Positions 2,692 to 50,262 of a stretch of DNA of 64,000 nt are shown here, piece by piece. The notes beneath the pieces were generated by a model. It had not been told where the DNA came from. It ran no database searches and saw nothing but the letters and a program-made list of their open reading frames with translations. Numbering within the stretch: position 1 is the stretch's first letter; each line of letters begins with the position of its first letter. The translations under genes were made by a program, and so were the position numbers. The DNA is from an uncultured Anaerolineae bacterium. Its GTDB lineage: Bacteria; Chloroflexota; Anaerolineae; JAFGEY01. The stretch is taken from NCBI GenBank assembly GCA_964481205.1, contig CAYZYE010000002.1:3532-67531 (forward strand), given 5' to 3'.

Positions 2692-2697
2692 GCATTT

Positions 2698-12226: not shown

Positions 12227-13444
12227 ATGGCCCAGTACAAGTTCAAATGCCGCCCTTGCCCGCCCCACATCCGCCGACAATGTATCCAAGAAGCGCACGT
12301 CTCGCCTGCGGCAAAACGGATCATCATCCAATCATTTGAAGCAAGAACAGACACGCAAGCGACCTGGGATCTGCTGCAACACAATTGCCTGCTCGTCCGC
12401 CGCGAAAACATGCCCACCATCGCGCCGGTGTCACGCAAGGGAGGTTTGCGAGATCGCCTTTTTGGCCCAGAGCCGCCTCCTGCCCAGGAAGACAAAGCAT
12501 CTCAACAACCGCCCCCCAGCCAGCAGCTGCCCGTGGTCAAACCATACCAGCCGCGTTCCCCGGCTGCTGAACCCACAACGTCTCAGCCGACCACTCAAAC
12601 AGTCTCGCAGACCAGGTTCATCCGCACCCAACGCCCGGCCGATCGCGCCAGAACACCTACGCCTCGGACGGTTCATTTGCCCAGGCCGCAAACACCCGTT
12701 TCCAAGGCGCCAATCCTGCGCTATCCGCGCGCCCGGCAGCCGCACGTCGTTGCCAACGAACAACCCGGACCGAGAATACTGGTCTCGCAGGTGATCGGCC
12801 ACCGCATCTCGCTGCCCACCGACGGCGAGTTGGTGCTGGGGCGCTTTGATCCGTTCACCAAAATCAAGCCCGACATTGACTTGACATTTGAAGACCGGAT
12901 CACCAGGGGCATTTCGCGCCGCCACGCCCAAGTGATCGGTTGGCAAGGACACTATGCGATCAAGGATTTGGGCAGCACCTTTGGCACCTGGGTCAACGAC
13001 AAACGGTTGTCGCTAGAACAAAAACAACCCTTGCGCATCGGCGATATGATCCGGCTGGGTAATTGTGTCCTATTTCTGGACCGTCCGCCAAACCTATGGA
13101 AAACGCCGTTGTCTCTGGAACGCTGCTTTTTCTATTCCACGTTTTCGGGACAATACCTGGCCATCCCGGCCAAACCGGCGATCGTCATCGGGCGCGCCGA
13201 CGCCGGCCTGGGGTTCAAGCCGGACATCGATCTCGGCGCAGAAGAAGAAGCGGCGTCAGCCGTCTCACGACGACATGCCAGACTACTTTGGCGAAACGGG
13301 CAACTCGTCGTCCAAGATTTGGGCAGCACACAACACACCGCGATCGATGGACGCCAGGTGCCCATCGGCGCCAAGACGCCCATCTTGCCCGGACAGCATT
13401 TGTGGTTGGGGGGATACACCATCGCTTTTGATATGGTCGAGTGA
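12227..13444 (+). CDS. Twin FHA-domain protein with an N-terminal Cys-rich motif and a Pro-rich linker
   Basis: Two FHA-like segments (GRxDP...DIDL...SRRHA...GSTxGTWVN...GD.I.LG). The start is at ATG 12227 (GGGAG RBS). The track's alternative start is at 12173. Confidence 0.8.
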   Translation: MAQYKFKCRPCPPHIRRQCIQEAHVSPAAKRIIIQSFEARTDTQATWDLLQHNCLLVRRENMPTIAPVSRKGGLRDRLFGPEPPPAQEDKASQQPPPSQQLPVVKPYQPRSPAAEPTTSQPTTQTVSQTRFIRTQRPADRARTPTPRTVHLPRPQTPVSKAPILRYPRARQPHVVANEQPGPRILVSQVIGHRISLPTDGELVLGRFDPFTKIKPDIDLTFEDRITRGISRRHAQVIGWQGHYAIKDLGSTFGTWVNDKRLSLEQKQPLRIGDMIRLGNCVLFLDRPPNLWKTPLSLERCFFYSTFSGQYLAIPAKPAIVIGRADAGLGFKPDIDLGAEEEAASAVSRRHARLLWRNGQLVVQDLGSTQHTAIDGRQVPIGAKTPILPGQHLWLGGYTIAFDMVE

Positions 13445-14371: not shown

Positions 14372-15160
14372 ATGCCGCAATACCTCAAATATCCAGACCC
14401 AATTCTGCCCCAACCGCGCGACATAGAGCCGCCTGGGCCGAGAATTCTCGTCTCCCAGGCGCTGGGACATCGCATTTTGCTGCCCGAAGATGGCGAACTT
14501 GTGCTGGGACGCTTTGACCCGACCTATAAAGTCAAACCGGACATCGATCTGACGGCTGAAGACAAAGCCGCGTGGGGCATTTCTCGACACCACGTGCGGC
14601 TTGTCGGCTGGCGGGGGCAATATGAAATCGAGGATATGGGGAGCAGCAACGGCACCTGGGTCAACGATGAACAAATCGAGTCCGGGCGCAAAGTCCCGCT
14701 CACGGTGGGCGACCAGGTACGCCTGGGCGGCAGCATTTTCTATTTCGACCGCCCGCCGACGATCTGGAAAATGCCCATCACCCGGCAACAAGGCTTTTTC
14801 TATGTCACCTTTACCGGACACTATTACCCGCTGCCCGGCCAAAAGACGATCCTGGTTGGACGTTCCGACTCTAAACTCGGTTTCAAGCCCGACATTGCGC
14901 TGAATGACGAAGACGAGTCGATCACCGTTGTCTCGCGCAAACACATCAAATTGACGCTTCGCGGCGAACAATACATGGTCGAGGATATGGGCAGCTCGTT
15001 TGGCACCAGGTTGGACGGGACCAAAGTCTACGCCGGGATCAAAATCCCCCTCCATCCAGGACAGCACTTGTGGCTGGGCGGATACACACTGGCCTTTGAT
15101 GTGATCGCCAAGCCGACCGCCCCGCCATCGACAGGCGCAAAAACAGCCCCACTGCTCTAG
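14372..15160 (+). CDS. Twin FHA-domain protein, paralog of 12227..13444 without the N-terminal extension
   Basis: Collinear similarity to the C-terminal 260 aa of 12227..13444 (PGPRILVSQ.LGHRI.LP.DGELVLGRFDP). Confidence 0.8.
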   Translation: MPQYLKYPDPILPQPRDIEPPGPRILVSQALGHRILLPEDGELVLGRFDPTYKVKPDIDLTAEDKAAWGISRHHVRLVGWRGQYEIEDMGSSNGTWVNDEQIESGRKVPLTVGDQVRLGGSIFYFDRPPTIWKMPITRQQGFFYVTFTGHYYPLPGQKTILVGRSDSKLGFKPDIALNDEDESITVVSRKHIKLTLRGEQYMVEDMGSSFGTRLDGTKVYAGIKIPLHPGQHLWLGGYTLAFDVIAKPTAPPSTGAKTAPLL

Positions 15161-27295: not shown

Positions 27296-29377
27296 TTACT
27301 GCCCCAGCGCCTCCAGCGCCTCCTCGCGGCGATTGATCGCCCACTCGTAATCGCCGTCGATCTCGATCGCGCGATCAAAGGCCATGATCGCCTCTTGATA
27401 GCGCTGCGCGTCGACCAACAGTTGCCCCTTGTGCGCATAGGCCCAACTGTACTGATCGTCGAGCAAAATGGCCTCGTCAAACGCGGCAATGGCTTCATCA
27501 TAACGCGCTTGCAGGCGCAGCGTTTCGCCCTTTTCAGCCCAAACCCAGGGCAAAGTCGGATCCACCTCGGTGGCCCGATCCAGAGCGGCTATGGCGTCCG
27601 TCAGACGCTCCAGTTGCCGGAGCGTCTGACCAATACTGCCCAGCGCCCAGGCATAGCGCGGCTGCAAGTCGATGGCCCGTTCAAAAGCCGCCAGCGCCTC
27701 CTCGTACTCGCCGGTCTGGCGCAGCGTTTCGCCCTTTTGCGCCCACACCCAGGACATTTGATCATTCAACTTGATGGCCTGGTTCAGCGCCACCAGCGAT
27801 TCCTCATAACGGTTGGTATGGCGCAGCGCAAGCCCCAGGTTGCCCCAGGCCCAGGGATAATCTTTATCCAGGCTAACCGCCTGCTGAAACGCCTCGACGG
27901 CCTCTGGATAACGCTTGAGCAGCCGCAAACTCTCGCCTTTTTCACCCCAAATCCAGGCGATGGCGCTGTCGGCCTGGATCGCCCGCTCGATGGTCTCGAC
28001 CGCCTGTTCATATTGCTCCGACATGCGCAGGGCTTGAGCCATACTTCCCCAGGCCCAGGCATAATCTGGGTCCAGCTCGACCGCACGCCGAAAAGCCGCA
28101 ATCGAATCATCATACCGTTCCATTTGACGCAGTGTTTCCCCTTTGGAACCCCAGGCCCAGGCATAGTCCGCGTCGAGTTCAATCGCCTCGACCAATGCGG
28201 CCAGCGCATCCTCGTAACGTTTGGCCTGTCGCAGCGCCTCGCCGCGATGCGCCCAAGACCAGGAATAATCGCGCCGGATCTCGAGGGCGCGCGCAAAGGC
28301 GTCCTCGGCCTGATCAAAGTCCCCATTTTGGCGATACGCCTCGCCCAAATGCGCCCAGGCCCAGTCGTTGTCCTGAACCAGCTGCACCGCGCTTTGAAAA
28401 GCGGCGATCGCTTGATCATAGCGACCCAATTCACGCAGGGCTTCGCCTTTTTCGGCCCAGACCCAACTTTCCGGATCGAGGGCCAGGGCGCGTTCGAGCG
28501 GTGCCAAAGCTTCCTGGTATCGATCTACCTGGCGATAGGCCTGCCCCAGGCTGGCCAGCGCCCAGGCATAGTTGGGGTCAACGGTAATGGCTTCCAAAAA
28601 GGCGGCGATCGCTTCATTAAAGCGGTCCAGTTGGCGCAACGCCTCGCCTTTGCTGGCCCATGCCCAGGCATATTGGGCATCGACGGAAACAGCGCGGTCC
28701 AGCGCCTCGACCGCCTCGTCGTATTGACCGGCCACCCGCAACGCCTCGCCCTTGTGCGCCCACGCCCAGGCGTAATCGGGGTCCAGCTCGATGGCGTGAT
28801 CGAACGCCGCCATCGCCTGGTCATAACGCCGCGCCTGGGTCAACGTCTCGCCCTTTTCTGCCCAGGCCCAGGCATTGTCCGGCTCGGCGCTCAATACCTG
28901 CTCGAATACATCCAACGCATCTTCAATTTGCCCATTTTGACGCAGCGCCTGCCCTTTGCTCGACAGCGCCCAAATGTTTTCGGGGTTGATTTCGATGGCC
29001 AGATCAAAATATTCGAGCGACTCTTGATAGCGCCCCATCTCACGCATCGACTCGGCGAGATGCGCCCAGGCCCACTCGTATTGGGGATCGATCTCGACCG
29101 CGCGTTGAAAGGAAGAGATTGCGCGCTCGTATTGGCCCGCCTCGCGCAGCGTCTCGCCGCGATGCGCCCAGGCCCAATCGTATTTGGGATTAAGCTCCAA
29201 AGCGCGATCAAAGGCCGAGACGGCCAAATCGTATTGGCCTTGCTCGCGCAAAGACTCGCCGCGCCTGGCCCAATCTTGGGCAAACTGTGCGCTGTGCCCC
29301 GCCGAAAGGATATTCAAATGCGCCTTGACTGACTTGGGTGATTTTGGTTTAGACCACTTGTCTACCTGACCGGTCAT
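27296..29377 (-). CDS. Tetratricopeptide repeat protein with ~20 highly regular TPR units
   Basis: 34-aa repeats of the pattern D..YAWAWA.KGEAL...RY.EA..AFD.A.ELDP. The start is at MTGQVDK with an AGGAGA RBS. The ORF extension further upstream runs into the MITE. Confidence 0.85.
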   Translation of the reverse strand: MTGQVDKWSKPKSPKSVKAHLNILSAGHSAQFAQDWARRGESLREQGQYDLAVSAFDRALELNPKYDWAWAHRGETLREAGQYERAISSFQRAVEIDPQYEWAWAHLAESMREMGRYQESLEYFDLAIEINPENIWALSSKGQALRQNGQIEDALDVFEQVLSAEPDNAWAWAEKGETLTQARRYDQAMAAFDHAIELDPDYAWAWAHKGEALRVAGQYDEAVEALDRAVSVDAQYAWAWASKGEALRQLDRFNEAIAAFLEAITVDPNYAWALASLGQAYRQVDRYQEALAPLERALALDPESWVWAEKGEALRELGRYDQAIAAFQSAVQLVQDNDWAWAHLGEAYRQNGDFDQAEDAFARALEIRRDYSWSWAHRGEALRQAKRYEDALAALVEAIELDADYAWAWGSKGETLRQMERYDDSIAAFRRAVELDPDYAWAWGSMAQALRMSEQYEQAVETIERAIQADSAIAWIWGEKGESLRLLKRYPEAVEAFQQAVSLDKDYPWAWGNLGLALRHTNRYEESLVALNQAIKLNDQMSWVWAQKGETLRQTGEYEEALAAFERAIDLQPRYAWALGSIGQTLRQLERLTDAIAALDRATEVDPTLPWVWAEKGETLRLQARYDEAIAAFDEAILLDDQYSWAYAHKGQLLVDAQRYQEAIMAFDRAIEIDGDYEWAINRREEALEALGQ

Positions 29378-29437
29378 TGGGTCTCCTGTACAACACATGG
29401 TGAAAAGCGCCAAACTTGAGATCAGTACAGGGCTGTT

Positions 29438-29600
29438 CAATTCTAATGTGTGACTAAAGTCACCGCTGGCGGGCTGAAGCCGGGCGTCCCACCTGCGTGG
29501 ACGCCACCGTCGGCGGGGCCTCGTCGCCGTAGGGGGACGACCAGCCAACGGCTCGCCAAGCGCGGTTTCAACCGCTGGATTGTAGAATTGAACAGCCCTG
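29438..29600. mobile_element. MITE-like repeat, family 1, copy 2 (long form with an internal GGCGTCC...GGACGCC hairpin)
   Basis: Same TIRs as copy 1. Flanked by a 9-bp direct repeat AGATCAGTA on both sides. Confidence 0.75.
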
Positions 29601-29741
29601 AGATCAGTATAACATCAAACCCCACGCGGGTCAAAAAAACAATGACCTACTGCCGGGCAAAAATGCGAAACCTTGCTAGCCCCTTACACGTAATACCATT
29701 ACAGTGAAACACATGCCCAAGTTATCAAGGAGTCATTCGAA

Positions 29742-37742: not shown

Positions 37743-39099
37743 CGCCCGCAGAACGACCAGACGGAGGATGTGTGTGCAAAATACAATCGCAATTATTGCC
37801 AAAATATCGTCTAAAATCGAACCGGCGCTCATCGCCTACCGGCGAGACTGGCACAAGTACGCGGAAACGGGCTGGTGCGAGTTTCGCACCGCGTCGCTGA
37901 TCGCCCGGCGGCTGACCGAACTGGGCTACCGGGTCCACCTGGGGCGCGAGGTGATCGACGAGGCCGGGCGGATGGGCGTGCCCGATCACGACATTTTGCA
38001 ATCTCGCTGGCAGCGCGCGCAAGCGCAGGGCGGCGACCCCGAATTTCTGCCCCTGCTCGAGGAGGGATTCACCGGCGTGGTCGGCGTGTTGAAAAACGGC
38101 GCCGGCCCCACGGTGGGGATTCGCTTTGACATTGACGCCAACGAGCTGCAAGAAAGCGCCGCCGAGACGCATCGCCCGGCGCGAGAGGGATTCGCCTCGA
38201 TTCACCCAGAGGCCACGCATGCCTGCGGTCACGACGGACACGCCGCCGTTGGCCTGGGCGTCGCCGACGTGCTGGCGCGGCTGCAACCCAGTTGGCGCGG
38301 CGTCATCAAGTTGATCTTTCAACCCGCCGAGGAAGGCGTGCGCGGCGCCAGGGCAATGGTCGACGCCGGCGTCGTCGACGACGTCGATGTGCTGCTGGCG
38401 CACCATCTGTACAGCGGCGTGAAACCGGGGCTGGTCACGGGCGGCAAAGGCGGATACCTGAGCACCACCAAGTTCGACGCCTTGTTCACCGGCGCGCCGG
38501 CGCATGCCGCCGGCGCGCCTCACGCGGGCAAAAACGCGCTGTTGGCCGCAGCAACCGCCGTCCTCAACCTCTATGCCCTCCCCCGCCACCGCGAAGGCGT
38601 GACCCGCGTCAATGTAGGGCGGCTACAAGCCGGCAGCGGGCGCAACGTGATCCCGTCGCACGCGCACCTGGTCATCGAAACACGCGGCGCAAGCAACGCA
38701 TTGAACGCCTATATGTACGATTATGCGATCCGCATCCTCGAATCGGCTGCGCAAATGCACGACTGCACCCTCGAAATCAAGCCAATGGGCGCGGCCCAGG
38801 GCGCCGACAGCAGCCCGGAACTGGCCGGGCGGGTCGAACAAATCGCATTGCAGTTTGGCGAATTTACCCTGAAACCGTCAGAGAACGGCGGCGGAAGCGA
38901 AGACTATACCTGGATGATGCGCCGCGTGCAAGAAAACGGCGGTCAGGCGACCTTTATCGCCCTCGGCGCCGACATCGCGGACGGCGAGTCTGGCCTGGGG
39001 CACCACACCGCCGAGTTTGATTTTGACGAACGCGCGCTGGCCCAGGCGGTCAGACTGCTTTCGGCGGTCGCCGTGGATTCATTGGCGCTGGCAGAATAA
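37729..39099 (+). CDS. M20D family amidohydrolase (N-acyl-amino acid amidohydrolase / hippuricase-like)
   Basis: Metal-binding segments (HACGHDGH, FQPAEEG). The start is uncertain (37729 or 37768). Confidence 0.8.
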   Translation: MSNNDARRTTRRRMCVQNTIAIIAKISSKIEPALIAYRRDWHKYAETGWCEFRTASLIARRLTELGYRVHLGREVIDEAGRMGVPDHDILQSRWQRAQAQGGDPEFLPLLEEGFTGVVGVLKNGAGPTVGIRFDIDANELQESAAETHRPAREGFASIHPEATHACGHDGHAAVGLGVADVLARLQPSWRGVIKLIFQPAEEGVRGARAMVDAGVVDDVDVLLAHHLYSGVKPGLVTGGKGGYLSTTKFDALFTGAPAHAAGAPHAGKNALLAAATAVLNLYALPRHREGVTRVNVGRLQAGSGRNVIPSHAHLVIETRGASNALNAYMYDYAIRILESAAQMHDCTLEIKPMGAAQGADSSPELAGRVEQIALQFGEFTLKPSENGGGSEDYTWMMRRVQENGGQATFIALGADIADGESGLGHHTAEFDFDERALAQAVRLLSAVAVDSLALAE

Positions 39100-39142
39100 C
39101 CCCCACATCCTGTGGAAAACCTGTGGACATTGTGGATAACTC

Positions 39143-39167
39143 GGCGCTTTTCCACCCAAAAGCGCCG
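39143..39167 (+). terminator. Stem-loop GGCGCTTTT-CCACCC-AAAAGCGCC downstream of the amidohydrolase gene (terminator candidate, no U-tract)
   Basis: Perfect 9-bp stem read directly. Confidence 0.3.
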
Positions 39168-39178
39168 GTTATGGAAAA

Positions 39179-39254
39179 GGATGTGTTTCATTTGCTTTGT
39201 AGGTCGCCCGCAAGGGGCGATGCTACAAACGCCCAAACCATTTGAAACACATCC
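39179..39254. repeat. Repeat family 2, copy A: imperfect TIRs GGATGTGTTTCA...TGAAACACATCC around a conserved hairpin core GTAGGTCGCCCGCAAGGGGCGATGCTAC
   Basis: Related copies at 44045..44153, 48837..48938 and 49202..49368. Confidence 0.5.
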
Positions 39255-39277
39255 CATTGAAAAGGAAAGGAAAACGT

Positions 39278-41824
39278 GTGGTCAAAAAACCAATTGTACA
39301 CATGATCGGCAACGCGCACATCGATCCGGTGTGGTTGTGGCGTCTGGGAGAGGGACGCCAGGAGGTTTTATCAACCTATCGCGCGGCCATTGAACGCATC
39401 GGGGAAACGCCGGGCTTTATTTTCAGCAGCGGCGGCGCGATCACCTATCGCTGGGTGCAAAAAGACGACCCCGAACTGTTTGCCGCCATCCGGCACTGCG
39501 TCGCCGACGGCAGTTGGTCGATCGTCAGCGGTTGGATGATCCAGCCCGACTGCAACATCCCCGGCGGCGAATCGTTCGTCCGTCAGGGGCTATACGGGCA
39601 ACGCGCCATCGAGGAAATGTTTGGCGTGCGCGCCGCCACCGGCTATAACGTCGATTCATTTGGACACGCCGGCAGTTTGCCGCAAATACTGCGTGGCTGC
39701 GGGCTGAGCAATTATATCTTTTTTCGCCCCGCCCCCGGCGTCGAAAAAGAGCTGCCCGGCAACCTCTTTTGGTGGGAAAGCGACGACGGTTCACGAGTGC
39801 TGACCAGCCGCCCGCCGCTGCACTATCCCAGCCACGACGGCGACATTATGGAACGCATCGACGCGGCGGCGGCGCAAGCCCCGGTCGATGTGGGACACGT
39901 GCTGTGCTTTTACGGCGTCGGCAACCACGGCGGCGGGCCGAGCAAAGCCAATATTGCCTCCATTCTGGCCGCCATGCAGCGCGCCGGCGGGCCAGAGGTG
40001 CGTTTTGGCGCCACCGATGCCTTTTTCGACCTTGTGCGCGCCGGCGGCGCCGACCTGCCCGTGCTGCACGACGAACTGCAACATCACGCGCGCGGCTGCT
40101 ATACCGCCGTCTCCAAAATAAAGTGGTACAACCGCAAATGCGAAAACGCCCTGCTCTGCGCCGAAAAGTTTGCCGCGCTGGCGCATCGCTACTGCGGCCT
40201 GGACTATCCCCAGGCGTCGCTAGAGCAAGCCTGGGAAAACGTCCTGTTTAACCAATTTCACGACATTCTGGCCGGCACCAGCTTGCGCCAGGCGTGCCAG
40301 GACGTGTACGAGGATTACGAAACCAGTTTGCGCATCGCCAACCAGTCGCTTGATCGCGCGCTGGCGGCCTTGTGTACCCGGATCGACACGCGCGGCCTGG
40401 ACCGGCCCTTGATCGTCTTTAATCCACACCCCTGGGATGTGGTCGCCCCCACCGAGGCCGTGGCGACCCCCACCCGGCGTTGGAACCAAGATTGGCGCGG
40501 GCAATTTCGCCCCGGCATCGTCCACCTGACCGACGACCGGGGGAAACCCGTGCCTTGCCAGGTCACAGCGGTCGAACATGACGGCGGATATTACTTGCTG
40601 CATCTGTCCTTTATCGCCGACCTGCCCGCGCTGGGCTATCGCTGCTACAATCTGGACATCCCGCGCGACGCGCCCACCTGGCCGGGAACGGCCACGAGGG
40701 CCGGTGCTATCGGGGAAATGAACCACGCAACCGGGGCCGCGGTACAGAGGGGCGCAAAACCGGGGGAGCTGATCCTGGAAAATCAACACCTGCGCCTCGC
40801 CTTTGACCCAGACAGCGGTTGGCTGACCAGTTTGTACGACAAGGAGAATGTGGTCGAACTGCTTGGCGGCCCGGGGGGTGTGCCACTGGTCATCGACGAT
40901 CCGAGCGACACCTGGAGCCACGACCTGGTCTCGTTCGACCGGGTGATCGGCAAATTCGAGGCCGGGGGGCAGGTCGCCGGCAGGTCGCCGGCGCATATCG
41001 CTGCCGGCGCGCCGGTGCGACAAAGCGTGCGGATAGTCAGCCGGTGGAACTGCTCGACGATCACGATTGATTATATCTTGTACGACAATGATCGCCAGGT
41101 CTACATCGACATGACCGTTGATTGGCACGAGCAGCTCAAAATGCTCAAACTGGCATTCCCGCTGGCGCTAGAGAACGCGACAAGCAGGTCGTCGATCCCT
41201 TATGGCAGCATCCAACGCGAGGGGGACGGCGGCGAAGAGCCGTGCCAAAGTTGGGTCGATGTCAGCGGCAGCATCGACGGGCAACCTTACGGCCTGGCCT
41301 TGCTCAACGACAGCAAATACGGCTATGACGCGCTCGACGGCGAGCTGCGGATGAGTATTCTACGCAGCCCGGTGTTTGCCTTTCACCAGCCGCGCCAGAT
41401 CGAGCCGGGCGTGACCTATCACTATACCGATCAGGGAGAACAGTTTGTGCGTCTGGCGCTGCTGCCGCACGCCGGCGGCTGGCAAGAGGGCGATCTCGTG
41501 CGCCGCGCCGCGTTGTTGAACGCGCCGCCGGTCGCGCGGGAGGTCGATCCGCACGCAGGGGAATGGCCGTTGGCCTTGTCATTTTTGCGCTGTTCAGCGC
41601 CCAACGTCGCGATCACGACGCTCAAACGCGCCCAAGAGGGCGACGCGCTGATCTTGCGTGGTTACGAGACGATTGGAAAAGAAACGATCGCCAGAATCGA
41701 ACTGGGACACGAAAACGCCGGCTGGCCCGTCGCCTGGAAAGCGCACGAGATCAAGACGCTGAAATTAGCGGTGGGCGCGAGCAAGCCGGTCGAGGTCAAT
41801 ATGCTTGAGGAAAACCAATCATAG
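39278..41824 (+). CDS. Glycoside hydrolase family 38 alpha-mannosidase
   Basis: GH38 N-terminal motif (KKPIVHMIGNAHIDPVWLW) and a long collinear match across the protein. GTG start after an AGGAAAGGAAAAC RBS. The ATG at 39242 lies inside the repeat element and is probably not the start. Confidence 0.85.
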   Translation: MVKKPIVHMIGNAHIDPVWLWRLGEGRQEVLSTYRAAIERIGETPGFIFSSGGAITYRWVQKDDPELFAAIRHCVADGSWSIVSGWMIQPDCNIPGGESFVRQGLYGQRAIEEMFGVRAATGYNVDSFGHAGSLPQILRGCGLSNYIFFRPAPGVEKELPGNLFWWESDDGSRVLTSRPPLHYPSHDGDIMERIDAAAAQAPVDVGHVLCFYGVGNHGGGPSKANIASILAAMQRAGGPEVRFGATDAFFDLVRAGGADLPVLHDELQHHARGCYTAVSKIKWYNRKCENALLCAEKFAALAHRYCGLDYPQASLEQAWENVLFNQFHDILAGTSLRQACQDVYEDYETSLRIANQSLDRALAALCTRIDTRGLDRPLIVFNPHPWDVVAPTEAVATPTRRWNQDWRGQFRPGIVHLTDDRGKPVPCQVTAVEHDGGYYLLHLSFIADLPALGYRCYNLDIPRDAPTWPGTATRAGAIGEMNHATGAAVQRGAKPGELILENQHLRLAFDPDSGWLTSLYDKENVVELLGGPGGVPLVIDDPSDTWSHDLVSFDRVIGKFEAGGQVAGRSPAHIAAGAPVRQSVRIVSRWNCSTITIDYILYDNDRQVYIDMTVDWHEQLKMLKLAFPLALENATSRSSIPYGSIQREGDGGEEPCQSWVDVSGSIDGQPYGLALLNDSKYGYDALDGELRMSILRSPVFAFHQPRQIEPGVTYHYTDQGEQFVRLALLPHAGGWQEGDLVRRAALLNAPPVAREVDPHAGEWPLALSFLRCSAPNVAITTLKRAQEGDALILRGYETIGKETIARIELGHENAGWPVAWKAHEIKTLKLAVGASKPVEVNMLEENQS

Positions 41825-41835
41825 GGGCAGGTAAA

Positions 41836-42048
41836 ATGTTTCCATCACACAGCGTGGTCATTCCGATCATTGATTATGAACTCTGCCAGGCCTGCCGCAA
41901 GTGCGTGGCATCGCAGCACTGCCGGTTCAAAGCCTTTGTGCGCATCGACAAGGAGGAACCGCCATTCATCGATGTGTCTCGCTGCGGCGGGTGCTACGAC
42001 TGCGTACCGCACTGCCCCAACCAGGCGATCAAGTTGCCGGACAAGTGA
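41836..42048 (+). CDS. Small ferredoxin-like protein (two Cys clusters: CQACRKC...C and CGGCYDCVPHCP)
   Basis: Cys spacing fits a 2x[4Fe-4S] ferredoxin pattern. 70 aa. Confidence 0.45.
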   Translation: MFPSHSVVIPIIDYELCQACRKCVASQHCRFKAFVRIDKEEPPFIDVSRCGGCYDCVPHCPNQAIKLPDK

Positions 42049-43947
42049 TCATTCGCCCGACCACTGCGGGTAATAGGTGGACAGCCACGAGTACGGAAAG
42101 TCTTGCATCGACTCGCTCTCGTCGGGGTTTTCGACACCGACGACATAGACGTGATTTTCGCCGTCGATATAGGCAATCTGCGCCCCATCTGGGCTAAAGG
42201 CCGCCTCGGCCCGCAAATGCTCCTCGTCTGCGTGATCGGTGACGGCAATCAGCGTCGCTTCGCCGCCGTCGCGGCCGATCACATAAATGCTCCGCGTCAA
42301 CGGAAAGACCCACTCGACATTGGACATTGCCGAAAAAACCACCCACTCGCCGTCGGGCGACCACTGCGGGGCACTCGCGCATTGACCGTTCCCGGGCCAG
42401 ATCACCTCCAGACCCGAACCGTCAGAATGAATACGCGCCAGATCGCAGTTGCGATGAAAAACGATCCATTCTCCGTCTGGACTCCAGGACGGGGCCGTAT
42501 TGTTTTCGGTTGAGGTAATTTGGCGCAAATCGGTGCCATCGGCGTTGACAATGAAAAGCGAGTGCCCAGCGACTTCGCCGGCGTCAGAGCGAATGCCGCT
42601 CACCACCAGTTGCCGGCCTTCAGGACTCCAAGACACATCGTTGATGTGTTGAAATCCGGCGTCCTGCAGAATCTTGGTTGGCGCTTTTTCTTCCAGCAGC
42701 GAATAGATACACAAACCGTTCCCCAACCCGTCCCACTCGCACGGCGCGACGCGAACGGCTTCCTCGTCCGAACCGTCCCCCGGCAACGTCTCGTCTTCGC
42801 CGAGACCGAGAACGATCAGCGCCGCCCCAACAGCGACCGCCGCCACGACCAGCAGCGCAATCACGCCCCCGGCCCAGGCCCACCAGGGAATTTTTCGCTT
42901 TTTGGGCAGAACCCTGGTTGCCGGCACCGCCGGCTCTGGCTCGACCTGAGTAACACTGGCTTGGACCGCCGGCGGCGGCTTGGGTTCAACGACGGTTTTT
43001 GGCGGCGCCGCCTCGACCGCTGGCGCCGTCTCGATCGGCAGCGGCGCAAACGCATCCAGTTTTTCGACCGGCGACAGAGACGGCGGCATGCGCTGGTCAA
43101 AGCCCAAAATGTCGGTCAATGGCACGGCCTGCGCCGCCCGCTTGAGCGCCGCGCTCATTTCACCGCAACTCTGGTATCGATCCTGCGGGTCTTTGGCCAA
43201 GGCCTTGAGGATGACCAGCTCGATCTGTTCGGGAATAGCCGGATTGACCAGCCGAGGCATCGGCAGCGGCTCGGTGATGTGTTTGATCACCACCGCCATC
43301 GGCGTTTCGGCGTCAAAAGGCACGCGCCCGGTCAACATCTCGTACAAGACCACGCCGAGCGAGTAAATATCGGCGCGGTGGTCGGCCTTTTTGCCCTGTC
43401 CCTGCTCAGGCGACATGTAGGCCGGTGTGCCCACGCCCACGCCAGAAGCGGTCAGCTGCACCGATCCCTCGACCATCTTGGCCAGACCGAAATCCATCAG
43501 CAGCGCCCAGTCACCTCGATCCATCAACACATTCGACGGCTTGACGTCGCGATGAATGATCCCCTGCTCGTGAGCATAATCGAGCGCCTGAGCCAAATGT
43601 TCAATGATCTCGATCGCCCGTTCGGTTTCCACCGCTCCGGCCACGATCATATCTTTGAGCGTGCCGGCGGGCACATATTTCATCGCAATAAAAGTATAGT
43701 CGCCTTCCCGGCCAAAATCATAGACCGGCAAAATGTGAGGGTGTTCCAACCGCGCCACGGCCTTGGCTTCGCGAATAAAGCGTTCGGCAAAGCCCTGCTC
43801 ATGTACGTAATAAGGAGGCAGCACCTTGATCGCCACGTATCGCTCCAGCGACGGCTGAAAGGCCTTGAATACCGAAGCCATGCCGCCCTGTCCCAACGGT
43901 TCGATAATGCGATATTGTCCCAAAGTTTGTCCGGTTAAATCTTGCAT
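42049..43947 (-). CDS. Ser/Thr protein kinase with a TM helix and an extracellular PD40/TolB-like beta-propeller
   Basis: Hanks kinase motifs (GQGGMASVFKA, HRDVKPSN, DFGLAK). One TM helix. Repeated SWSPDGEW / FSPDG motifs at the C-terminus. The start is at MQDLTG with a GGAGGA RBS. Confidence 0.85.
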   Translation of the reverse strand: MQDLTGQTLGQYRIIEPLGQGGMASVFKAFQPSLERYVAIKVLPPYYVHEQGFAERFIREAKAVARLEHPHILPVYDFGREGDYTFIAMKYVPAGTLKDMIVAGAVETERAIEIIEHLAQALDYAHEQGIIHRDVKPSNVLMDRGDWALLMDFGLAKMVEGSVQLTASGVGVGTPAYMSPEQGQGKKADHRADIYSLGVVLYEMLTGRVPFDAETPMAVVIKHITEPLPMPRLVNPAIPEQIELVILKALAKDPQDRYQSCGEMSAALKRAAQAVPLTDILGFDQRMPPSLSPVEKLDAFAPLPIETAPAVEAAPPKTVVEPKPPPAVQASVTQVEPEPAVPATRVLPKKRKIPWWAWAGGVIALLVVAAVAVGAALIVLGLGEDETLPGDGSDEEAVRVAPCEWDGLGNGLCIYSLLEEKAPTKILQDAGFQHINDVSWSPEGRQLVVSGIRSDAGEVAGHSLFIVNADGTDLRQITSTENNTAPSWSPDGEWIVFHRNCDLARIHSDGSGLEVIWPGNGQCASAPQWSPDGEWVVFSAMSNVEWVFPLTRSIYVIGRDGGEATLIAVTDHADEEHLRAEAAFSPDGAQIAYIDGENHVYVVGVENPDESESMQDFPYSWLSTYYPQWSGE

Positions 43948-44044
43948 CAGAATCCTCCCCCTCCCACCCACACGCAGATATGTGCCTCCCACCAGCTACC
44001 ATTTTAACACGTTCTGATGTTAAATTCAAGCAGCACTTGCGCAA

Positions 44045-44153
44045 GGATGTATTTCACTTTTGGGGCGAAACCGATCACATTCGGTTTGTTCAGCCGCCCT
44101 CCCCACAGGTCGCCCACGAGGGGCGATGCTACGGACGCCTAAATTCTGAAACT
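44045..44153. repeat. Repeat family 2, copy B
   Basis: GGATGTATTTCAC terminus and a GGTCGCCCACGAGGGGCGATGCTAC core. Confidence 0.45.
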
Positions 44154-44228
44154 CGCTTGGTTGATTTGGCGCGATTGTGGTATACTCGTACATGCTTCAA
44201 CCAAACACAATACTCGCGGAGTGGAACG

Positions 44229-45899
44229 ATGAAATTGGTTACAGTAGCGGAAATGAAACGCCTGGAACAGGCCGCCGATGCCAAAGGGCATTCTTTTGCC
44301 GAGATGATGGAACAAGCCGGACGCGCCGTGGCGCTCGAGATCGCCAAACAGACGCCTGTCAAAGGCAAAATTGTTTTGGTGCTGGTCGGCCCCGGCAACA
44401 ATGGCGGTGATGGCCTGGTGGCGGCGCGCTATCTCAAGGAAGCGGGCGCACAAATCGTCTGCTATATGTTGAAACCGCGCCCCGAGGGAGACACAAACCT
44501 CAAGCTGGTCCAAGAACACAATATCGCCTGTTTGCTCCTGGACGACGATCGTGAGCACAAGATGCTCCGTAAAGTATTGCAAAGCGTCGATATAATCATA
44601 GATGCGCTCCTGGGCACCGGCGTCTCCCGGCCAATCGACGGCGCGCTCAAGGACATCCTCGACGTGGTGCGCCAGACCGTGCAAGCGCGGCGACCGGCGC
44701 AAACCATCGCCTGGACGGCGTTGGCGCCGCCGTCCAGGCCGGCCGATCAGCCGATCCCCGCACCGTTCATCGTTGCCATTGACACGCCCAGCGGCCTCAA
44801 CTGCGATACAGGCGAGATCGACGCTGCCGCCCTGACCGCCGACCTCACCATCGCTCTGGCCGCGCCCAAACGCGGCCATTTCCGCTTCCCCGGCGCGGCC
44901 GCGCTGGGCCGGCTGGTCGTCGCCGATATTGGCATCGACCCCGGGCTGGTCGCCGAAACGTTGGCCGGTATCCCGGTCGATGTGGCGACGGCGAAAATGG
45001 CTGGCGCGTTGCTGCCCGAACGCCCCCCGCAGGCGCACAAGGGCACATTTGGCAAGGCGATGGTCGTTGCCGGTTCGGTCAATTACACCGGCGCGCCTTA
45101 TCTGGCCGCCGCGGCGGCGGCCCGGGTCGGCGCCGGGCTGGTGACGTTGGCGCCGCCGCAACCGCTGCACGCCATTTTGGCCGGCAAACTGGTCGAGGCG
45201 ACATTTTTGCTCTTGCCGCACAGCATGGGCGTGTTGAACGTCAATGCCGTTCCGGTGTTGAGCAAAAACCTCAAGGGGTACACGGCGATGCTTCTTGGAC
45301 CGGGGCTAGGTCAAGACAAAGAAACGGTATCTTTTGTTCATAAATTGCTCGATATGGCCCCGTCGTCACCGCCACCCATCGGTTTTCGACGCGGCCGGGA
45401 ATCATCAGCGCCGGTCACGCTTCCCGCGCTGGTGATCGATGCCGACGGCCTCAACGCCCTGGCTAAAATCGACAGATGGTGGGAATACCTGCCGCCGCAC
45501 AGCATCCTCACCCCGCATCCCGGTGAAATGGCGCGCTTGACCAGCAGTGAGAACGAGAATCGGGAGCGCATCGCCCTGGCCGCCGAAAAGGCCGCCGCAT
45601 GGCAGCAAATCGTCGTCCTCAAAGGGGCGTACACGGTCATCGCAGCGCCAGATGGGGCGATCGCGGCGCTGCCTTTTGCCAACCCGGCCCTGTCGACGGC
45701 CGGCAGCGGCGACGTTTTGGCGGGCTGCATTGTGGGGTTGTTGGCGCAAGGGCTGGCTCCATTCGAGGCTGCCGTCTGCGGCGCGTATCTCCACGGGTTG
45801 GCCGGCGCGCGCGTGGCGGCCCGGTTGGGCGTGGCGGGGACGCTGGCCGGCGATCTGTTGCCGGAACTGCCCGGCGCCATCGCCAGCCTGAAAATGTGA
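44229..45899 (+). CDS. nnr: Bifunctional NAD(P)H-hydrate repair enzyme Nnr (epimerase plus ADP-dependent dehydratase)
   Basis: YjeF-N motif (LVLVGPGNNGGDG) and the YjeF-C carbohydrate kinase domain (GSGDVLAG). Confidence 0.85.
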   Translation: MKLVTVAEMKRLEQAADAKGHSFAEMMEQAGRAVALEIAKQTPVKGKIVLVLVGPGNNGGDGLVAARYLKEAGAQIVCYMLKPRPEGDTNLKLVQEHNIACLLLDDDREHKMLRKVLQSVDIIIDALLGTGVSRPIDGALKDILDVVRQTVQARRPAQTIAWTALAPPSRPADQPIPAPFIVAIDTPSGLNCDTGEIDAAALTADLTIALAAPKRGHFRFPGAAALGRLVVADIGIDPGLVAETLAGIPVDVATAKMAGALLPERPPQAHKGTFGKAMVVAGSVNYTGAPYLAAAAAARVGAGLVTLAPPQPLHAILAGKLVEATFLLLPHSMGVLNVNAVPVLSKNLKGYTAMLLGPGLGQDKETVSFVHKLLDMAPSSPPPIGFRRGRESSAPVTLPALVIDADGLNALAKIDRWWEYLPPHSILTPHPGEMARLTSSENENRERIALAAEKAAAWQQIVVLKGAYTVIAAPDGAIAALPFANPALSTAGSGDVLAGCIVGLLAQGLAPFEAAVCGAYLHGLAGARVAARLGVAGTLAGDLLPELPGAIASLKM

Positions 45900-45900
45900 T

Positions 45901-46830
45901 ATGGACGCGCCAACCCCGCTCGCATTGGCGGCGCCGTTCATCACCATCCTGGTCTTGCTGCTCACCGGCGCGGGGATGCGCCGCTGGGGGATGGTCACGC
46001 CAGAGGGCGCGCGGCAAATGAGCAGCCTGGTGCTCAACGTGTCGCTGCCGCCCTTGATTTTCATCACCCTGGCCGCCGAGATCACGCCCCAAGAGCTGGG
46101 GCAGGCGCCGGCCCTCATTGTCTTGGGCATCGCCGGCACATTGCTCGGCTATGCCGTGGCGACGCTGCTGGGCCGCCTGCCCATATTTTCGGCCAGCGAC
46201 CGCCCAACGCTGCAAGCGATGACGGCGCTGACCAATACCGCTTTTATCGGCTATCCATTGTGCCGGGCGCTGCTGGGCGGGCAAGGGCTATTGTACGCGG
46301 TATTGTACGATGTTGGTTTGACGTTGGTGATGAGCACATTGAGTATCTGGTTACTCAGCCGTGGCGGTCAACGCGGCGGCTGGCAAGACCTGGCGCGCAG
46401 TCCAATGATGTGGGCGCTGCTGCTTGGTGTGGTTTGGGGTTTGTGCGGTTGGTCGATCCCCGCCTGGCTGCGGCAACCACTCGAGACATTGGGACAATGC
46501 ACCACGCCGCTGGCGCTCTTGACCGTGGGTATGCTGATCCGGCCGGCGCCGGCGGCAAAGCCAAAGAGTTTTTGGCGATTGACGGCGTTGTCTGTGGCGC
46601 GCCTCATCATCACGCCGGCATTGATCATGGGACTGGTGATCATGTTCAAGGTCAACCGCGTGACCGCCATCGTCGCCATTTTGCAGACCGCAATGCCCAC
46701 CGCCATTTGCACAACGGCGATGGTGCAACAGTACGGCGGCGACGGCGAGTTGGCGGCAGCGGGCGTCGTCTGGACGACAATGTTGTCCTTGATCACTTTG
46801 CCGGTGTGGAGCGTGAGCCTGGTCAGGTGA
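45901..46830 (+). CDS. AEC (auxin efflux carrier) family transporter
   Basis: About 10 TM helices. Typical AEC N- and C-terminal repeat halves. Confidence 0.75.
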   Translation: MDAPTPLALAAPFITILVLLLTGAGMRRWGMVTPEGARQMSSLVLNVSLPPLIFITLAAEITPQELGQAPALIVLGIAGTLLGYAVATLLGRLPIFSASDRPTLQAMTALTNTAFIGYPLCRALLGGQGLLYAVLYDVGLTLVMSTLSIWLLSRGGQRGGWQDLARSPMMWALLLGVVWGLCGWSIPAWLRQPLETLGQCTTPLALLTVGMLIRPAPAAKPKSFWRLTALSVARLIITPALIMGLVIMFKVNRVTAIVAILQTAMPTAICTTAMVQQYGGDGELAAAGVVWTTMLSLITLPVWSVSLVR

Positions 46831-47013
46831 AAAAAAGTTGGTGTTGGGCCGCCGTTCATCGACGCTGTGAGCGGTGATAGGATCGATAGATCAAAGGAGG
46901 TTTGTATGCCGGAACTGACAGACGGGTGTGTCAAGCCCGCAGGCGGGCCAGTGTTGCCCGCGCCAAAAGCAGCTGTCCCGGTTGCGGGAACAGCACCATC
47001 ACAGGAGGTCAAA

Positions 47014-47607
47014 ATGTTAGCGCGCGTTGGTCAAAAAGCCATTGATTTTGAAGCCACGGCCTTTGTCGCCGGAACGGGATTCAAACCGGTCAAACTGTCC
47101 GACTATGAGGGTAAATGGGTTGTGCTCTGTTTCTATCCGGGTGATTTCACCTTTGTTTGACCGACCGAATTGGCAGCGGTCGCTGCCCTTTATGCGGATT
47201 TTCAGGCGCTGGGTGTCGAGATATTGTCCTTGAGCACCGACAGTCGCTTTGTACACAAAATCTGGCAAGAACAAGAACTATCCAAGATGGTCGATGGCGG
47301 GGTGCCTTTTCCGATGCTCTCGGACGGCGGCGGCAAGATCGGCGCCGTCTATGGCGTGTACGATGAAATGGCCGGCGTCGACATCAGAGGACGGTTCATC
47401 ATCGATCCCGACTTTGTCATTCGGGCGATGGAAGTGCTGACCCCAGAAGTGGGACGCAACCCGGCCGAGTTGCTCCGGCAGATCAAGGCTTTCCAACACG
47501 TGCGCGAGACGGGTCAGGTCACTCCGTCGGGGTGGCAGCCCGGAGGGACCACACTCACACCAGGGCCGGATTTGGTGGGCGCGGTGTGGAAAGTTTGGAA
47601 ACCATAA
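47014..47607 (+). CDS. Peroxiredoxin (AhpC/TSA family) with an in-frame TGA at the peroxidatic Cys position: candidate selenocysteine-containing peroxiredoxin (PrxU-like)
   Basis: The reading frame is continuous across the TGA at 47158-47160: ...[14 protein letters not shown]-[TGA][14 protein letters not shown].... Canonical Prx blocks follow ([19 protein letters not shown]). AGGAGG RBS before the ATG. Confidence 0.7.
47171..47190 (+). promoter_or_regulatory. Candidate bacterial SECIS hairpin GGCAGCGGUCGCUGCC, starting ~12 nt after the UGA
   Basis: Perfect inverted repeat with a GGU-containing apical region. It resembles the E. coli fdhF SECIS upper stem-loop. Confidence 0.45.
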
Positions 47608-47751
47608 GCGCCGGCGAGTGAATTTGCCTGCCAGGCGGGAGGCGGCCCAACACCCGGCCTCTCGGTATTATTTTTCAAACGGCCCCCACCCGGCAACATT
47701 GGGTGGGGGTTGACCATTAGCGGTGCTATTGGCGCAAAAAAGGGAGTAAAT

Positions 47752-48834
47752 ATGAAGTCCAAGATCGGAATCGGTGTTCTCAGCCACGCACACGGGCATG
47801 CAAACGTATATTGCGATGTGATGCGGCGCTTTGAGGACGTGGAATTGATCGCCACCTGGGACGACAATGAGGCGCGGGGTAAAAAAGCCGCGCAAGCATA
47901 CGGGTTGCAATACCGCTCTCGCGCCGACGATGTGATCCAGGACCCCAAGATCGATGCGCTGATCGTGACTTGCGAGACCAACCGCCACGCCGAATTCATC
48001 GAGCGCGCTGCCGCAGCGGGCAAACACATTTTGTGTCAAAAGCCCATGGCGACGACGTTGGCGGATTGTGATCGGATCATTGACGCGGTGCGCAAACACG
48101 GGGTCAAGTTTAGCATGGCTTTCCAAATGCGTCATGACCCGGTCAACCAAAAGATCAAGGAACTGCTCGATCAAGGCGCAGTGGGCAACGTTGCCATCGT
48201 CCGCCGCCGGCACGCGATCAATGTGTTGCTCAATCCGGCTTTTTTCAACGGCCCCACGCGCTGGCACATCGACCCCGTGGCCAACGTGGGCATGTTTTTC
48301 GACGACGCCAGCCACGCCGCCGATTGGTTTTTGTGGATGTTGGGTATGCCGCGCAGCGTGAGCGCCGAGATCGACAATGTTGTGACCCACGTTGCGCCCG
48401 ATGACAATGGCATTGCCGTGTACCGCTTTCAAAAGGGCGAGATTGGCATTTTACTCAACTCGTCGACCACCGTGGCGGCGATCAGTACCACCGAGATTTA
48501 CGGCGATCAAGGCACTATTGTGCAGGATTACGGCGATCAGCCAGGCGCGATCACGCCTCGACCCAAGGGCGTCGCCCCGCTGCGGCTGATCCGTCAAGGG
48601 GACAAGGAATGGACCGAGTTTCCGTTTGCCATCCCGGCAAGCCAACGCGAGCGTCTGGCCAACGTGCCCCGCCCCTTTGTCGATTACGTGCGCGGCCTCA
48701 CCGGGCAGACGATCAGCGCCCAAGAGGGCCGCCAGTCGGTCGAGATGGTGCTTGGCGCATACCGGTCGGCGCAAGAAGGCCGGCGGATCACCTTTTCCAC
48801 CGGGGAGAGGGCAACCCACCCGGACCAGATTTGA
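47752..48834 (+). CDS. Gfo/Idh/MocA family NAD(P)-dependent oxidoreductase
   Basis: Rossmann N-terminus (KIGIGVLSHAHGH) and family-typical length. AAGGGAG RBS. Confidence 0.8.
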   Translation: MKSKIGIGVLSHAHGHANVYCDVMRRFEDVELIATWDDNEARGKKAAQAYGLQYRSRADDVIQDPKIDALIVTCETNRHAEFIERAAAAGKHILCQKPMATTLADCDRIIDAVRKHGVKFSMAFQMRHDPVNQKIKELLDQGAVGNVAIVRRRHAINVLLNPAFFNGPTRWHIDPVANVGMFFDDASHAADWFLWMLGMPRSVSAEIDNVVTHVAPDDNGIAVYRFQKGEIGILLNSSTTVAAISTTEIYGDQGTIVQDYGDQPGAITPRPKGVAPLRLIRQGDKEWTEFPFAIPASQRERLANVPRPFVDYVRGLTGQTISAQEGRQSVEMVLGAYRSAQEGRRITFSTGERATHPDQI

Positions 48835-48836
48835 CG

Positions 48837-48938
48837 AGTGTATTTCACCTTTATGGCGAACCCGGGCCTCGGAATTTCTATTCCGAGGCTGCGGAATCCC
48901 CATTCCGCCGTCACCCCCTGACCCCCAAAGTGAAATAT
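48837..48938. repeat. Repeat family 2-related element, copy C (GTATTTCAC...GTGAAATA termini, internal hairpins)
   Basis: Termini match copies A and B. The inside carries CCTCGGAAT/ATTCCGAGG and GCGGAAT/ATTCCGC stems. Confidence 0.4.
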
Positions 48939-49028
48939 GCCCGGTTTGATATTCCCCTTGTCAACGGGCTTGCAGTTGTGATACAATACAATTGGGTGTG
49001 TCTCAAACAAGTCAAGTTGGTAGGATAG

Positions 49029-49201
49029 CAGGGCTGTTCAATTCTACAATCCAGCGGTTGAAACCGCGCTTGGCGAGCCGTTTGCTGGTCGTCCCCCTAC
49101 GGCGACGAGTCCACGCCAGTGATGGCGTCCACGCAGGTAGGACGCCCGGCTTCAGCCCGCCAGCAGTGACTTTAGTCACAAATTAGAATTGAACAGCCCT
49201 G
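49029..49201. mobile_element. MITE-like repeat, family 1, copy 3 (long form, inverted orientation)
   Basis: Same TIRs. Flanked by a 10-bp direct repeat GGTAG(G/C)ATAG. It is inserted into a family 2 repeat. Confidence 0.75.
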
Positions 49202-49368
49202 GGTAGCATAGCCCCTCGTGGGCGCTTGATGGGCCACCCAGCGGGCACAAGTCCTTACACCAGAAGCGTGCTGCTTGCGCCGGACCGGCTCGCCGACGGG
49301 GATTTGACAATCCCCTTGGAGCGCAGCCGATGAGGGGCTATGCTACAGACGCCCAAATCATCTTGTGC
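49202..49368. repeat. Repeat family 2-related sequence, copy D, split into a long inverted pair (GTAGCATAGCCCCTC ... GAGGGGCTATGCTAC)
   Basis: Core motif present twice in opposite orientation, about 100 nt apart. Confidence 0.4.
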
Positions 49369-49395
49369 CCGGTCAACAATCCTTGAGGTGAGAGC

Positions 49396-50262
49396 ATGGA
49401 AATCAATCTTGCTGATGAACGCGCCTTGCTGCTCAACGCGCAACTCTCGATGGAGCAGGCCCAAGGTCGCGCCTGGGGCAACAAACTCGACGCCTTTGGC
49501 AAACTGCTTCGCGTCGCCACTTTTTTTTCACGGCCCGCGGACGACGATTTCGACCTGGTTTACAAGGAACAACGCTACCAACCGTTTTGGCACATTGTTT
49601 GTACATCACATTACGAATACGAACGCAGCAAGCAGTACAAACTGGCCGTCAGCGGCCCGCAGGTCCAATCGGTCACGATCGAAGGGATGAGTTTTGACGC
49701 GGCCAACGGCTCTGTGGCCTTGACCGGGCTGGAATACTGCCGCGAAGAGATGCGCCGCGAGGTATTGATCGACGGGTTTACCAATCAAGCCGATCCGGGG
49801 CTGGCCGAATACCTCAAATTTGAAGCAACCGAGATCCCCGAAGAAAATTTGGATGACCTGGCTACCGAGAAAACGATCGTGGTGCCGCCGCAGGCGCGCG
49901 CGTCGGCCGTGGTCCGCGATATTTTGATCGGGATGATTAAAAGCATCCAGGCAGACCGCATCATCGAGGATCGGATCGATGTGGAACGGGTGGACTTGTA
50001 CTATCGCCCGGTCTATGCATTTCAATACCGGTGGCGCTCCAAAGAGCGCGAAGCGATCATTGAATACGACGGGGTGACGGGCAAACTGCAAACCGATGGC
50101 AAGACATTTCAACAATATGTCGGCAAGATCGTCGATCCCGAATTTCTGTTCGATATCGGGCTGGACACCATCGACCTGCTGGTGCCGGGCGGTGGACTGG
50201 CGATCAAATTGGCGAGAAAAGGCATTCAAGTGGCCCAGAGCCATAAAAAGGAACAAACATGA
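49396..50262 (+). CDS. Hypothetical protein
   Basis: 288-aa ORF with a GAGGTGAG RBS. No family recognised. Confidence 0.5.
   Translation: MEINLADERALLLNAQLSMEQAQGRAWGNKLDAFGKLLRVATFFSRPADDDFDLVYKEQRYQPFWHIVCTSHYEYERSKQYKLAVSGPQVQSVTIEGMSFDAANGSVALTGLEYCREEMRREVLIDGFTNQADPGLAEYLKFEATEIPEENLDDLATEKTIVVPPQARASAVVRDILIGMIKSIQADRIIEDRIDVERVDLYYRPVYAFQYRWRSKEREAIIEYDGVTGKLQTDGKTFQQYVGKIVDPEFLFDIGLDTIDLLVPGGGLAIKLARKGIQVAQSHKKEQT

Follow-up and report, generated by a model that had tools for sequence, protein, structure and literature searches.

The stretch of DNA analysed here in its entirety, the window, comprises 64,000 nucleotides of a contig from an uncultured Anaerolineae bacterium. Between its genes for an M20 peptidase and a GH38 protein lies a short element, copy A, that the first-pass annotation had grouped with three others (copies B, C and D) into a dispersed repeat family, referred to here as family 2. 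The family is real, since its core block recurs as it does not in shuffled sequence, copy A is bounded by an inverted repeat, and copies B and C have a module in common. All four elements are members, although several details of their original description proved wrong. The copies and their parts are the following.

Copy A, short form: 39179..39254, + strand, 76 nt, neighbours M20 peptidase and GH38 genes; perfect 12-nt inverted repeat, GGATGTGTTTCA at 39179-39190 and TGAAACACATCC at 39243-39254
Copy A, interior: GTAG...CTAC hairpin at 39199-39226; conserved block at 39201-39237
Copy A, putative target duplication: TATGGAAAA at 39170..39178 and CATTGAAAA at 39255-39263, 7/9 identical
Copy B, long form: 44045..44158, + strand, neighbours Ser/Thr kinase and Nnr genes; left end GGATGTATTTCA at 44045-44056
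Copy B, interior: module GGCGAAACCG..TTGTTCAGCCGCC at 44064-44098; conserved block at 44107-44143
Copy B, degenerate right end: TGAAACTCGC, from 44147
Copy C, core-less: 48836..48942, + strand, neighbours (as for copy D) Gfo/Idh/MocA gene and hypothetical gene; left end GAGTGTATTTCA, right end TGAAATATGCCC
Copy D, left part: 48994..49028, + strand; GGGTGTGTCTCA at 48994-49005 is probably the real left end of the copy
Family-1 MITE splitting copy D: 49029..49201, 10-bp duplication GGTAG(G/C)ATAG, not part of family 2; the duplicated target at its insertion point is GGTAGGATAG, 49019-49028
Copy D, right part: 49202..49376, + strand; inverted core arm at 49203-49227 (minus-strand match), GGGGAT-TTGACA-ATCCCC hairpin, direct block at 49322-49357; degenerate right end, 20 nt upstream of the ATG at 49396
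Possible degenerate remnant: 29650..29719, + strand; right-end-like TGAAACACATGC at 29705-29716, a weak case with one terminus only

Copy A had been thought to overlap the annotated ATG of the GH38 gene, but it contains no in-frame ATG; its only in-frame start is a TTG at 39242, within the right inverted repeat. A GTG at 39278 is preceded by AAAGGAAAGGA and leaves six residues ahead of the match to the GH38 N-terminal domain. Repeats that abut ribosome-binding sites or promoters can pull start-codon calls inward, and the TTG at 39242 is an example. Copy B sits between divergent promoter-like sites. Copy C begins 1 nt past the Gfo/Idh/MocA stop codon, and a promoter-like site (48958-48987) lies between copies C and D. 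A core was said to be common to A, B and D, and a 24-nt block is indeed present in all three, but D is without the 5' half GTAGGTCGCCC and has GCGCAGCCGATGAG. The GTAGCATAGCCCC arm of copy D (49203-49227) is an inverted second core, detected by nhmmer; the direct core at 49322-49376 follows some 95 nt downstream. Despite its missing core, copy C is a member of the family because it has a 22-nt left-end module, TGTATTTCAYYTTNNNGGCGAA, in common with B (0.06 expected by chance). A + strand gene begins about 30 nt downstream of the possible remnant, a family-1 MITE lies some 100 nt away, and a profile of the core run with nhmmer detects no core in the remnant.

Other repeated sequences occur in the window. 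Three direct repeats, TGTGGAAAA, TGTGGACAT and TGTGGATAA, at 11- and 9-nt spacing occupy 39111-39139, upstream of copy A and directly behind the M20 peptidase stop codon. The last of them matches the complement of the DnaA-box consensus TTATCCACA exactly, and the repeats could be a cluster of DnaA boxes or the binding site of another factor. The stretch from 39140 to 39169, between the M20 peptidase gene and copy A, forms a stem-loop, CGGCGCTTTT-CCACCC-AAAAGCGCCG, that is terminator-like, yet followed by only a weak T-run. A long gene on the minus strand (27296-29614) is built of periodic repeats of 102 nt, or 34 residues (D1-D7 of the repeat finder), and probably encodes a TPR-type protein. 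Diverged direct repeats with 71-79% identity in large open reading frames (1440-1575 and 8865-9000; 12764-13004 and 14432-14672) probably reflect paralogous neighbour genes, three consecutive frames of ~750-870 aa being present at 2.7-10 kb.

Copies, neighbours and host lineage

The 24-nt block GGGGCKATGCTACRRACGCCYAAA that forms the core of family 2 occurs three times in the window, each time on the + strand, with a chance expectation of 0. In the form GGGGCGATGCTACAAACGCCCAAA, with up to three mismatches, it is found at 39214-39237 (A), 44120-44143 (B) and 49334-49357 (D), and not once in 100 dinucleotide-preserving shuffles of the window. A repeat finder recovers the same core independently (its family D18). 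Further copies, whose absence would have spoken against the family, do exist. A degenerate 24-nt pattern searched against JGI metagenomes matched eight contigs, all from sample 3300028026, and one of the eight corresponds to copy D. The other seven, all short, contain ten more core copies, so counted with an nhmmer profile of the core: one each in L004 to L008 and L011, and four in L009. With A, B and D this gives 13 core copies, which together with the core-less copy C are dispersed over the window and the seven contigs. The same JGI sample and ENA assembly ERZ27262672 also hold contigs identical to the window. Since the metagenome copies were fetched with the core block as query, the dominance of this block over other parts of the element is partly built in, and core-less members such as C would be missed. 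Three contigs (L004, L011 and L009) end inside the repeat, as expected of a multicopy element, and repeats of this family do break metagenome assemblies.

Family 2 appears to be specific to its host lineage. Its degenerate 24-nt block has no true match in 185,579 species-representative genomes, a collection from which the host genome is absent; the sole candidate, L001, is a chance match inside an alphaproteobacterial coding sequence, in the same gene as L010 and L012. Viral contigs scanned with the left end and with the right end gave no match to either. The nearest relatives are Anaerolineae metagenome-assembled genomes with only 66% identity in Nnr, so that the host belongs to an uncultured and poorly sampled Anaerolineae lineage. 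In about 33 kb around nnr in these relatives the core profile detects no member of the family, and synteny at nnr differs; their nnr loci thus add nothing on covariation. At the strain level, the intergenic region with copy B is identical in an independent ENA contig, L014, which represents one other strain that retains B. No empty site or presence-absence polymorphism was found, L014 being the only other strain-level contig, and exact-protein look-ups of the M20 peptidase (flanking A) and the Gfo/Idh/MocA protein (flanking C) for empty sites returned no records. The copies are potential strain markers.

The copies outside the window have the following neighbours.

L004: copy 3' of rplA
L005: copy 3' of mreB
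L008: copy 3' of a DUF4349 gene, convergent with an M23 peptidase gene
L009: copies beside a response regulator-HD gene and AAA ATPase and TetR genes

Family 2 had been proposed to act as a regulatory RNA in 5' leaders, a proposal that does not fit the variety of positions in which it is found, nor the genes beside it, which are functionally unrelated. Probable leader positions are those of A, D and the L009 copy at 6802, and A and the latter lie 23-50 nt from start codons. By contrast, a -35-like hexamer of a predicted promoter follows shortly after the end of B, L006, L007 and the L009 copy at 585, and C, L004 and L008 lie 3' of genes. A strand bias relative to neighbouring genes, also raised by the first-pass annotation, does emerge: wherever the neighbours are co-directional (A, D, L004, L005 and L006), the repeat is in sense orientation, five times out of five (p of about 0.03, in a small sample).

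Termini, hairpins and nested elements

Family 2 elements are small and without coding capacity, measuring 76 nt in A, about 90 nt in L004 and L008, and less than about 400 nt in the long forms. The short form (A, L004 and L008; 76-95 nt) reads GGGTGTGTTTCATTTGCTTT, then either GTAGGTCGCCC or ATGGCCACCCGTCTATGCGCCGCCC, then RCRAG and finally GGGGCKATGCTACGGACGCCCAAACCATTTGAAACACACCC, and is bounded by 12-nt terminal inverted repeats, GGGTGTGTTTCA...TGAAACACACCC. This terminal 12-mer is kept with at most one mismatch at eight element ends across loci. Its two arms are identical at 12 of 12 positions in A and at 11 of 12 in L008, while B, C and D have degenerate right ends. The inverted termini ascribed to A, B and C are therefore perfect in A, but those of B and C match only in part at the right. 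L008 is flanked on both sides by AAAACAAAA, a 9/9 direct repeat, and deleting the element together with one copy of AAAACAAAA restores a stop codon, a spacer and a terminator hairpin. Among positions of the window, the chance frequency of a 9/9 match at such spacing is 8e-6, and that of a match of 7/9 or better is 0.0023. Of the complete copies, only two have clean duplications (9/9 in L008, 7/9 in A), and none is convincing in B, C or D, with nothing found for B and ambiguous candidates for C and D.

Inside the element, a GC-rich stem-loop adjoins an invariant GCTAC, that is GTAG on the opposite strand, in all 12 aligned copies. Copy A as a whole folds into a long hairpin (-37.8 kcal/mol, z = -6.7). 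A conserved hairpin core with a GNRA-like loop had been described, and neither part of this description agrees with the sequences. When the A-type structure was tested on an ungapped alignment of 12 copies, the universal stem shrank to four inner pairs, GCCC/GGGC, which do not vary in any copy, whereas the outer ten pairs are unpaired in two to nine of the 12. The extended hairpin, with a stem of 7+4 bp, occurs in three copies (A, B and the L009 copy at 1042); the other nine have the 4-bp stem. Since only the latter is universal, the extended hairpin is a trait of one subfamily rather than of the family. A G-to-T change in the sixth pair is uncompensated in five of the six copies that carry it, the proportion of paired cells in the 12-copy alignment (65.5%) compares with 64.1% in shuffles, and covariation is not significant, with a score of 0.120 versus 0.093 in shuffles and 19 of 500 shuffles scoring as high. 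On the minus strand the fold is nearly as strong. The loop has five nucleotides, RCRAG, and is closed by a C-G pair, so that it is a pentaloop and no GNRA tetraloop. As to other roles for the core, a terminator was rejected, there being no T-run after the hairpin on either strand, and so was a sigma-70 or sigma-54 promoter, for which the spacings of the motifs noted by eye (TATGCT, and TTGACA/TTGGCA in the hairpin loop) are wrong.

The long copies B and D are mosaics, and two further MITE-like families, both with CAGGGC termini and 8-10 bp duplications, are nested with family 2. Family 1 has an 18-nt inverted repeat, CAGGGCTGTTCAATTCTA, a length of about 175 bp and clean 9-10 bp duplications, and one of its copies is internally deleted. 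Copies of these two families are found as follows.

Family-1 MITE: window 2563-2693, 29428-29605 and 49029-49201; L008 1324-1429; L009 831-1002
Third MITE-like family: L006 392-575, L007 1289-1412 and L005 1-117, with CAGGGCAATYGCAYCT(TGAC...) inverted repeats of up to ~39 nt

The family-1 duplications are AGATCAGTA at 29428-29605, GCATTTTGCC at about 2563-2693 and ATGGCCACCC in L009, and two of the insertions, that in L009 and that at 49029-49201, fall within copies of family 2. In L006 and L007 the relation is the reverse: the core and right end of family 2 are enclosed by an outer element with CAGGGCAATYGCAYCT termini. The outer element of L006 has CAGGGCAATTGCATCT inverted repeats and an 8/8 duplication, GTATTTTG, with the core inside; the -35 hexamer of the promoter that follows overlaps with this duplication. 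In L005 (1-117) the outer family occurs without the family 2 core, with an inverted repeat of about 39 nt. The central GCAATTGC of the third-family termini is itself palindromic. At about 225-300 of L011 (minus strand) a 19-nt unit, GGGATTCYGCGCTGGAATA, is repeated three to four times in tandem. Hairpins of the type GGAAT-N4-ATTCC occur beside this array, in L005 and in copy C (48863-48909), which has two such unrelated hairpins and a fold with z = -5.2.

The long copies contain a hairpin module in which the inner pairs and the loop are conserved and the outer pairs differ, yet remain complementary: GGGGAT-TTGACA-ATCCCC, CCTGGAT-TTGGCA-ATCCAGG and GCCGGAT-CTGGCG-ATCCGGC. Between L006 (463-479) and L009 (about 1100-1125, minus strand) the stems are kept and the loop is inverted, CTGGCG versus CGCCAG, which implies a flip-flop inversion of the palindrome at the DNA level. 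In another rearrangement, the stretch that separates two CTATGC repeats is missing from one L009 copy. Palindromic modules are thus rearranged at the DNA level, like those of BIMEs and of nested MITEs. Nested MITE insertion, deletion between short direct repeats and inversion of palindromic modules are shown, as far as comparison of the copies goes, to have given rise to the long mosaics B, D, L005-L007 and L011.

Mobile element or functional unit

How did these copies arise? In our view family 2 probably consists of small, non-coding interspersed repeats, MITE-like and mosaic, that are specific to one lineage, spread in trans and affect genes incidentally. Of the original suggestion of a MITE, a REP-like regulatory RNA element or both, the MITE-like part holds and the regulatory RNA part is not supported. 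The former is based on the terminal inverted repeats, the 9-bp direct repeats at two copies, the many dispersed copies within one lineage and the nesting with other MITEs. A DDE-type transposase that recognises the terminal repeats would have moved the copies in trans, generating a 9-bp target duplication upon insertion into AT-rich intergenic DNA beside promoters, terminators and ribosome-binding sites. Neither a transposase gene nor a full-length insertion sequence with family 2 ends was seen on the contigs examined. The sense orientation of all five co-directional copies is not what a DDE-mobilised MITE predicts. The GTAG-tagged internal block, unchanged in all 12 aligned copies, also counts against this reading, although in part its invariance is a matter of ascertainment.

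Effects on neighbouring genes would be incidental, a strong hairpin being added to a leader or a 3' end, or upstream promoter DNA being displaced, and we infer that they amount to no shared regulatory function. The copies do mark remodelled regulatory DNA in this uncultured Anaerolineae lineage. Before the gene at 49396, for example, a leader of about 400 nt consists almost wholly of nested repeats, and in L006 the insertion falls exactly at a -35 hexamer.

It is possible, though unlikely, that family 2 is a REP or REPIN system, in which the GTAG-tagged stem-loop is the functional unit and a RAYT-like HUH tyrosine transposase would cut it and copy it in single-stranded form. The unit would then be read on the minus strand, as GTAG-CATMGCCCC-loop-GGGCG, and the outer inverted repeats would be secondary. 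The invariance of GCTAC speaks for such a system, and A-type copies form an imperfect GTAG...CTAC palindrome of 28 nt. Moreover, cores occur as inverted pairs in D and L009, as in REPINs and BIMEs, and the hairpin module exchanges its stem residues for complementary ones (GGGG/CCCC, CCTG/CAGG, GCCG/CGGC). Alternative complementary stem bases are likewise a feature of GTAG REP subfamilies, and GTAG repeats have been reported in Chloroflexi (Di Nocera et al. 2013, PMC3733652). The sense-strand bias, too, would fit strand-specific transposition of single-stranded DNA. However, the stem beside GTAG has only 4 bp in nine of 12 copies, with the remainder unpaired, below the 5-13 bp range of GTAG REPs (PMC3733652). 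Terminal inverted repeats and 9-bp duplications are, moreover, foreign to REPs mobilised by RAYTs, and no RAYT gene was seen on the contigs examined.

A related and rather improbable scenario is that the invariant block of about 34 nt, CGCCC-RCRAG-GGGC-KATGCTAC-GGACGCCCAAA, is itself the selected unit, either a site recognised by a RAYT-like HUH nuclease of Anaerolineae or a transcribed RNA module, carried as a passenger on several MITE scaffolds. If so, this sense-oriented, GTAG-tagged block would spread one functional motif beside many promoters and leaders.

We regard it as quite doubtful that family 2 functions as a structured RNA whose conserved block and hairpins work at the RNA level, be it as cis-regulatory leader, as mRNA stabiliser or as small RNA, with MITE scaffolds as mere carriers. 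The uniform sense orientation of A, D, L004, L005 and L006 (p of about 0.03) would suit an RNA, as would the strong folds, the G-T (G-U) pairs in the sense-strand stems and the location of A, D and the L009 copy at 6802 within probable 5' untranslated regions. Yet covariation falls short of significance, the hairpin has been lost from most copies and the fold of the minus strand is almost equally strong. A location ahead of a predicted promoter or between convergent genes is found for several copies, the neighbouring genes are unrelated, and a 173-bp MITE insertion as well as internal deletions are tolerated. Upstream of nnr the element is missing in relatives. Finally, Rfam yields no match at the gathering score over the whole window and nothing relevant even at E <= 10 over 38900-49500; a search for tRNAs and tmRNAs found none.

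That the inverted 12-mers or the GCAATTGC-type palindromes are protein-binding sites on DNA, such as operators or sites of nucleoid-associated proteins upstream of promoters, is very improbable: the inverted-repeat symmetry would be in keeping with it, as would the short distance, from a few nucleotides to a few tens, at which -35-like hexamers follow B, L006, L007 and the L009 copy at 585, but the spacing of half-sites is long and variable (52-70 nt), copies also lie in leaders and 3' of genes, and the closeness of L006 to its promoter follows from the insertion site, since the duplicated target overlaps the -35 hexamer.

On the preferred reading the flagged sequence is an ordinary kind of bacterial "junk" repeat, though of a new family, and not a conserved regulatory RNA.

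Relation to known systems

The ends and duplications of the mobile elements discussed here may point to their relatives. In the ISfinder family table, IS1 elements have ends of the form GGnnnTG and duplications of 8-9 bp, and ISAs1 elements have CAGGG ends and duplications of 8-10 bp. Family 2, with its GGGTGTG and GGATGTG ends, has a compatible duplication length, and we take IS1 to be a possible lead for it. For the family-1 MITE and the outer element of L006, both with CAGGGC ends and compatible duplication lengths, a comparable lead would be ISAs1.

Nothing seen in family 2 adds to the known biology of MITEs and REPs; only a functional role of the GTAG-tagged block would change this. Hairpin-rich MITEs of bacteria include Correia/NEMIS of Neisseria, ERIC of enterobacteria, RUP of Streptococcus pneumoniae and Nezha of cyanobacteria (PMC3733652). 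Like family 2, these are non-coding elements of ~70-300 bp with terminal inverted repeats and short target duplications (the latter seen at two copies of family 2), present in tens to hundreds of intergenic copies that fold as whole elements into a long hairpin and are inserted beside promoters and within transcripts. Family 2 differs from them in that it has no sequence similarity to any, short terminal repeats (12-20 nt), a GTAG-tagged internal stem-loop and a heavily mosaic make-up, with at least two other families nested. With the GTAG REPs, REPINs and BIMEs (PMC3733652; PMC3337134) it has in common an extragenic location, an invariant GTAG beside a GC-rich stem-loop, subfamilies with alternative complementary stem bases, inverted dimers and BIME-like mosaics with short motifs. 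Unlike these, however, family 2 has a stem of only 4 bp in most copies, and the elements in which its units lie have terminal inverted repeats and duplications of 8-10 bp.
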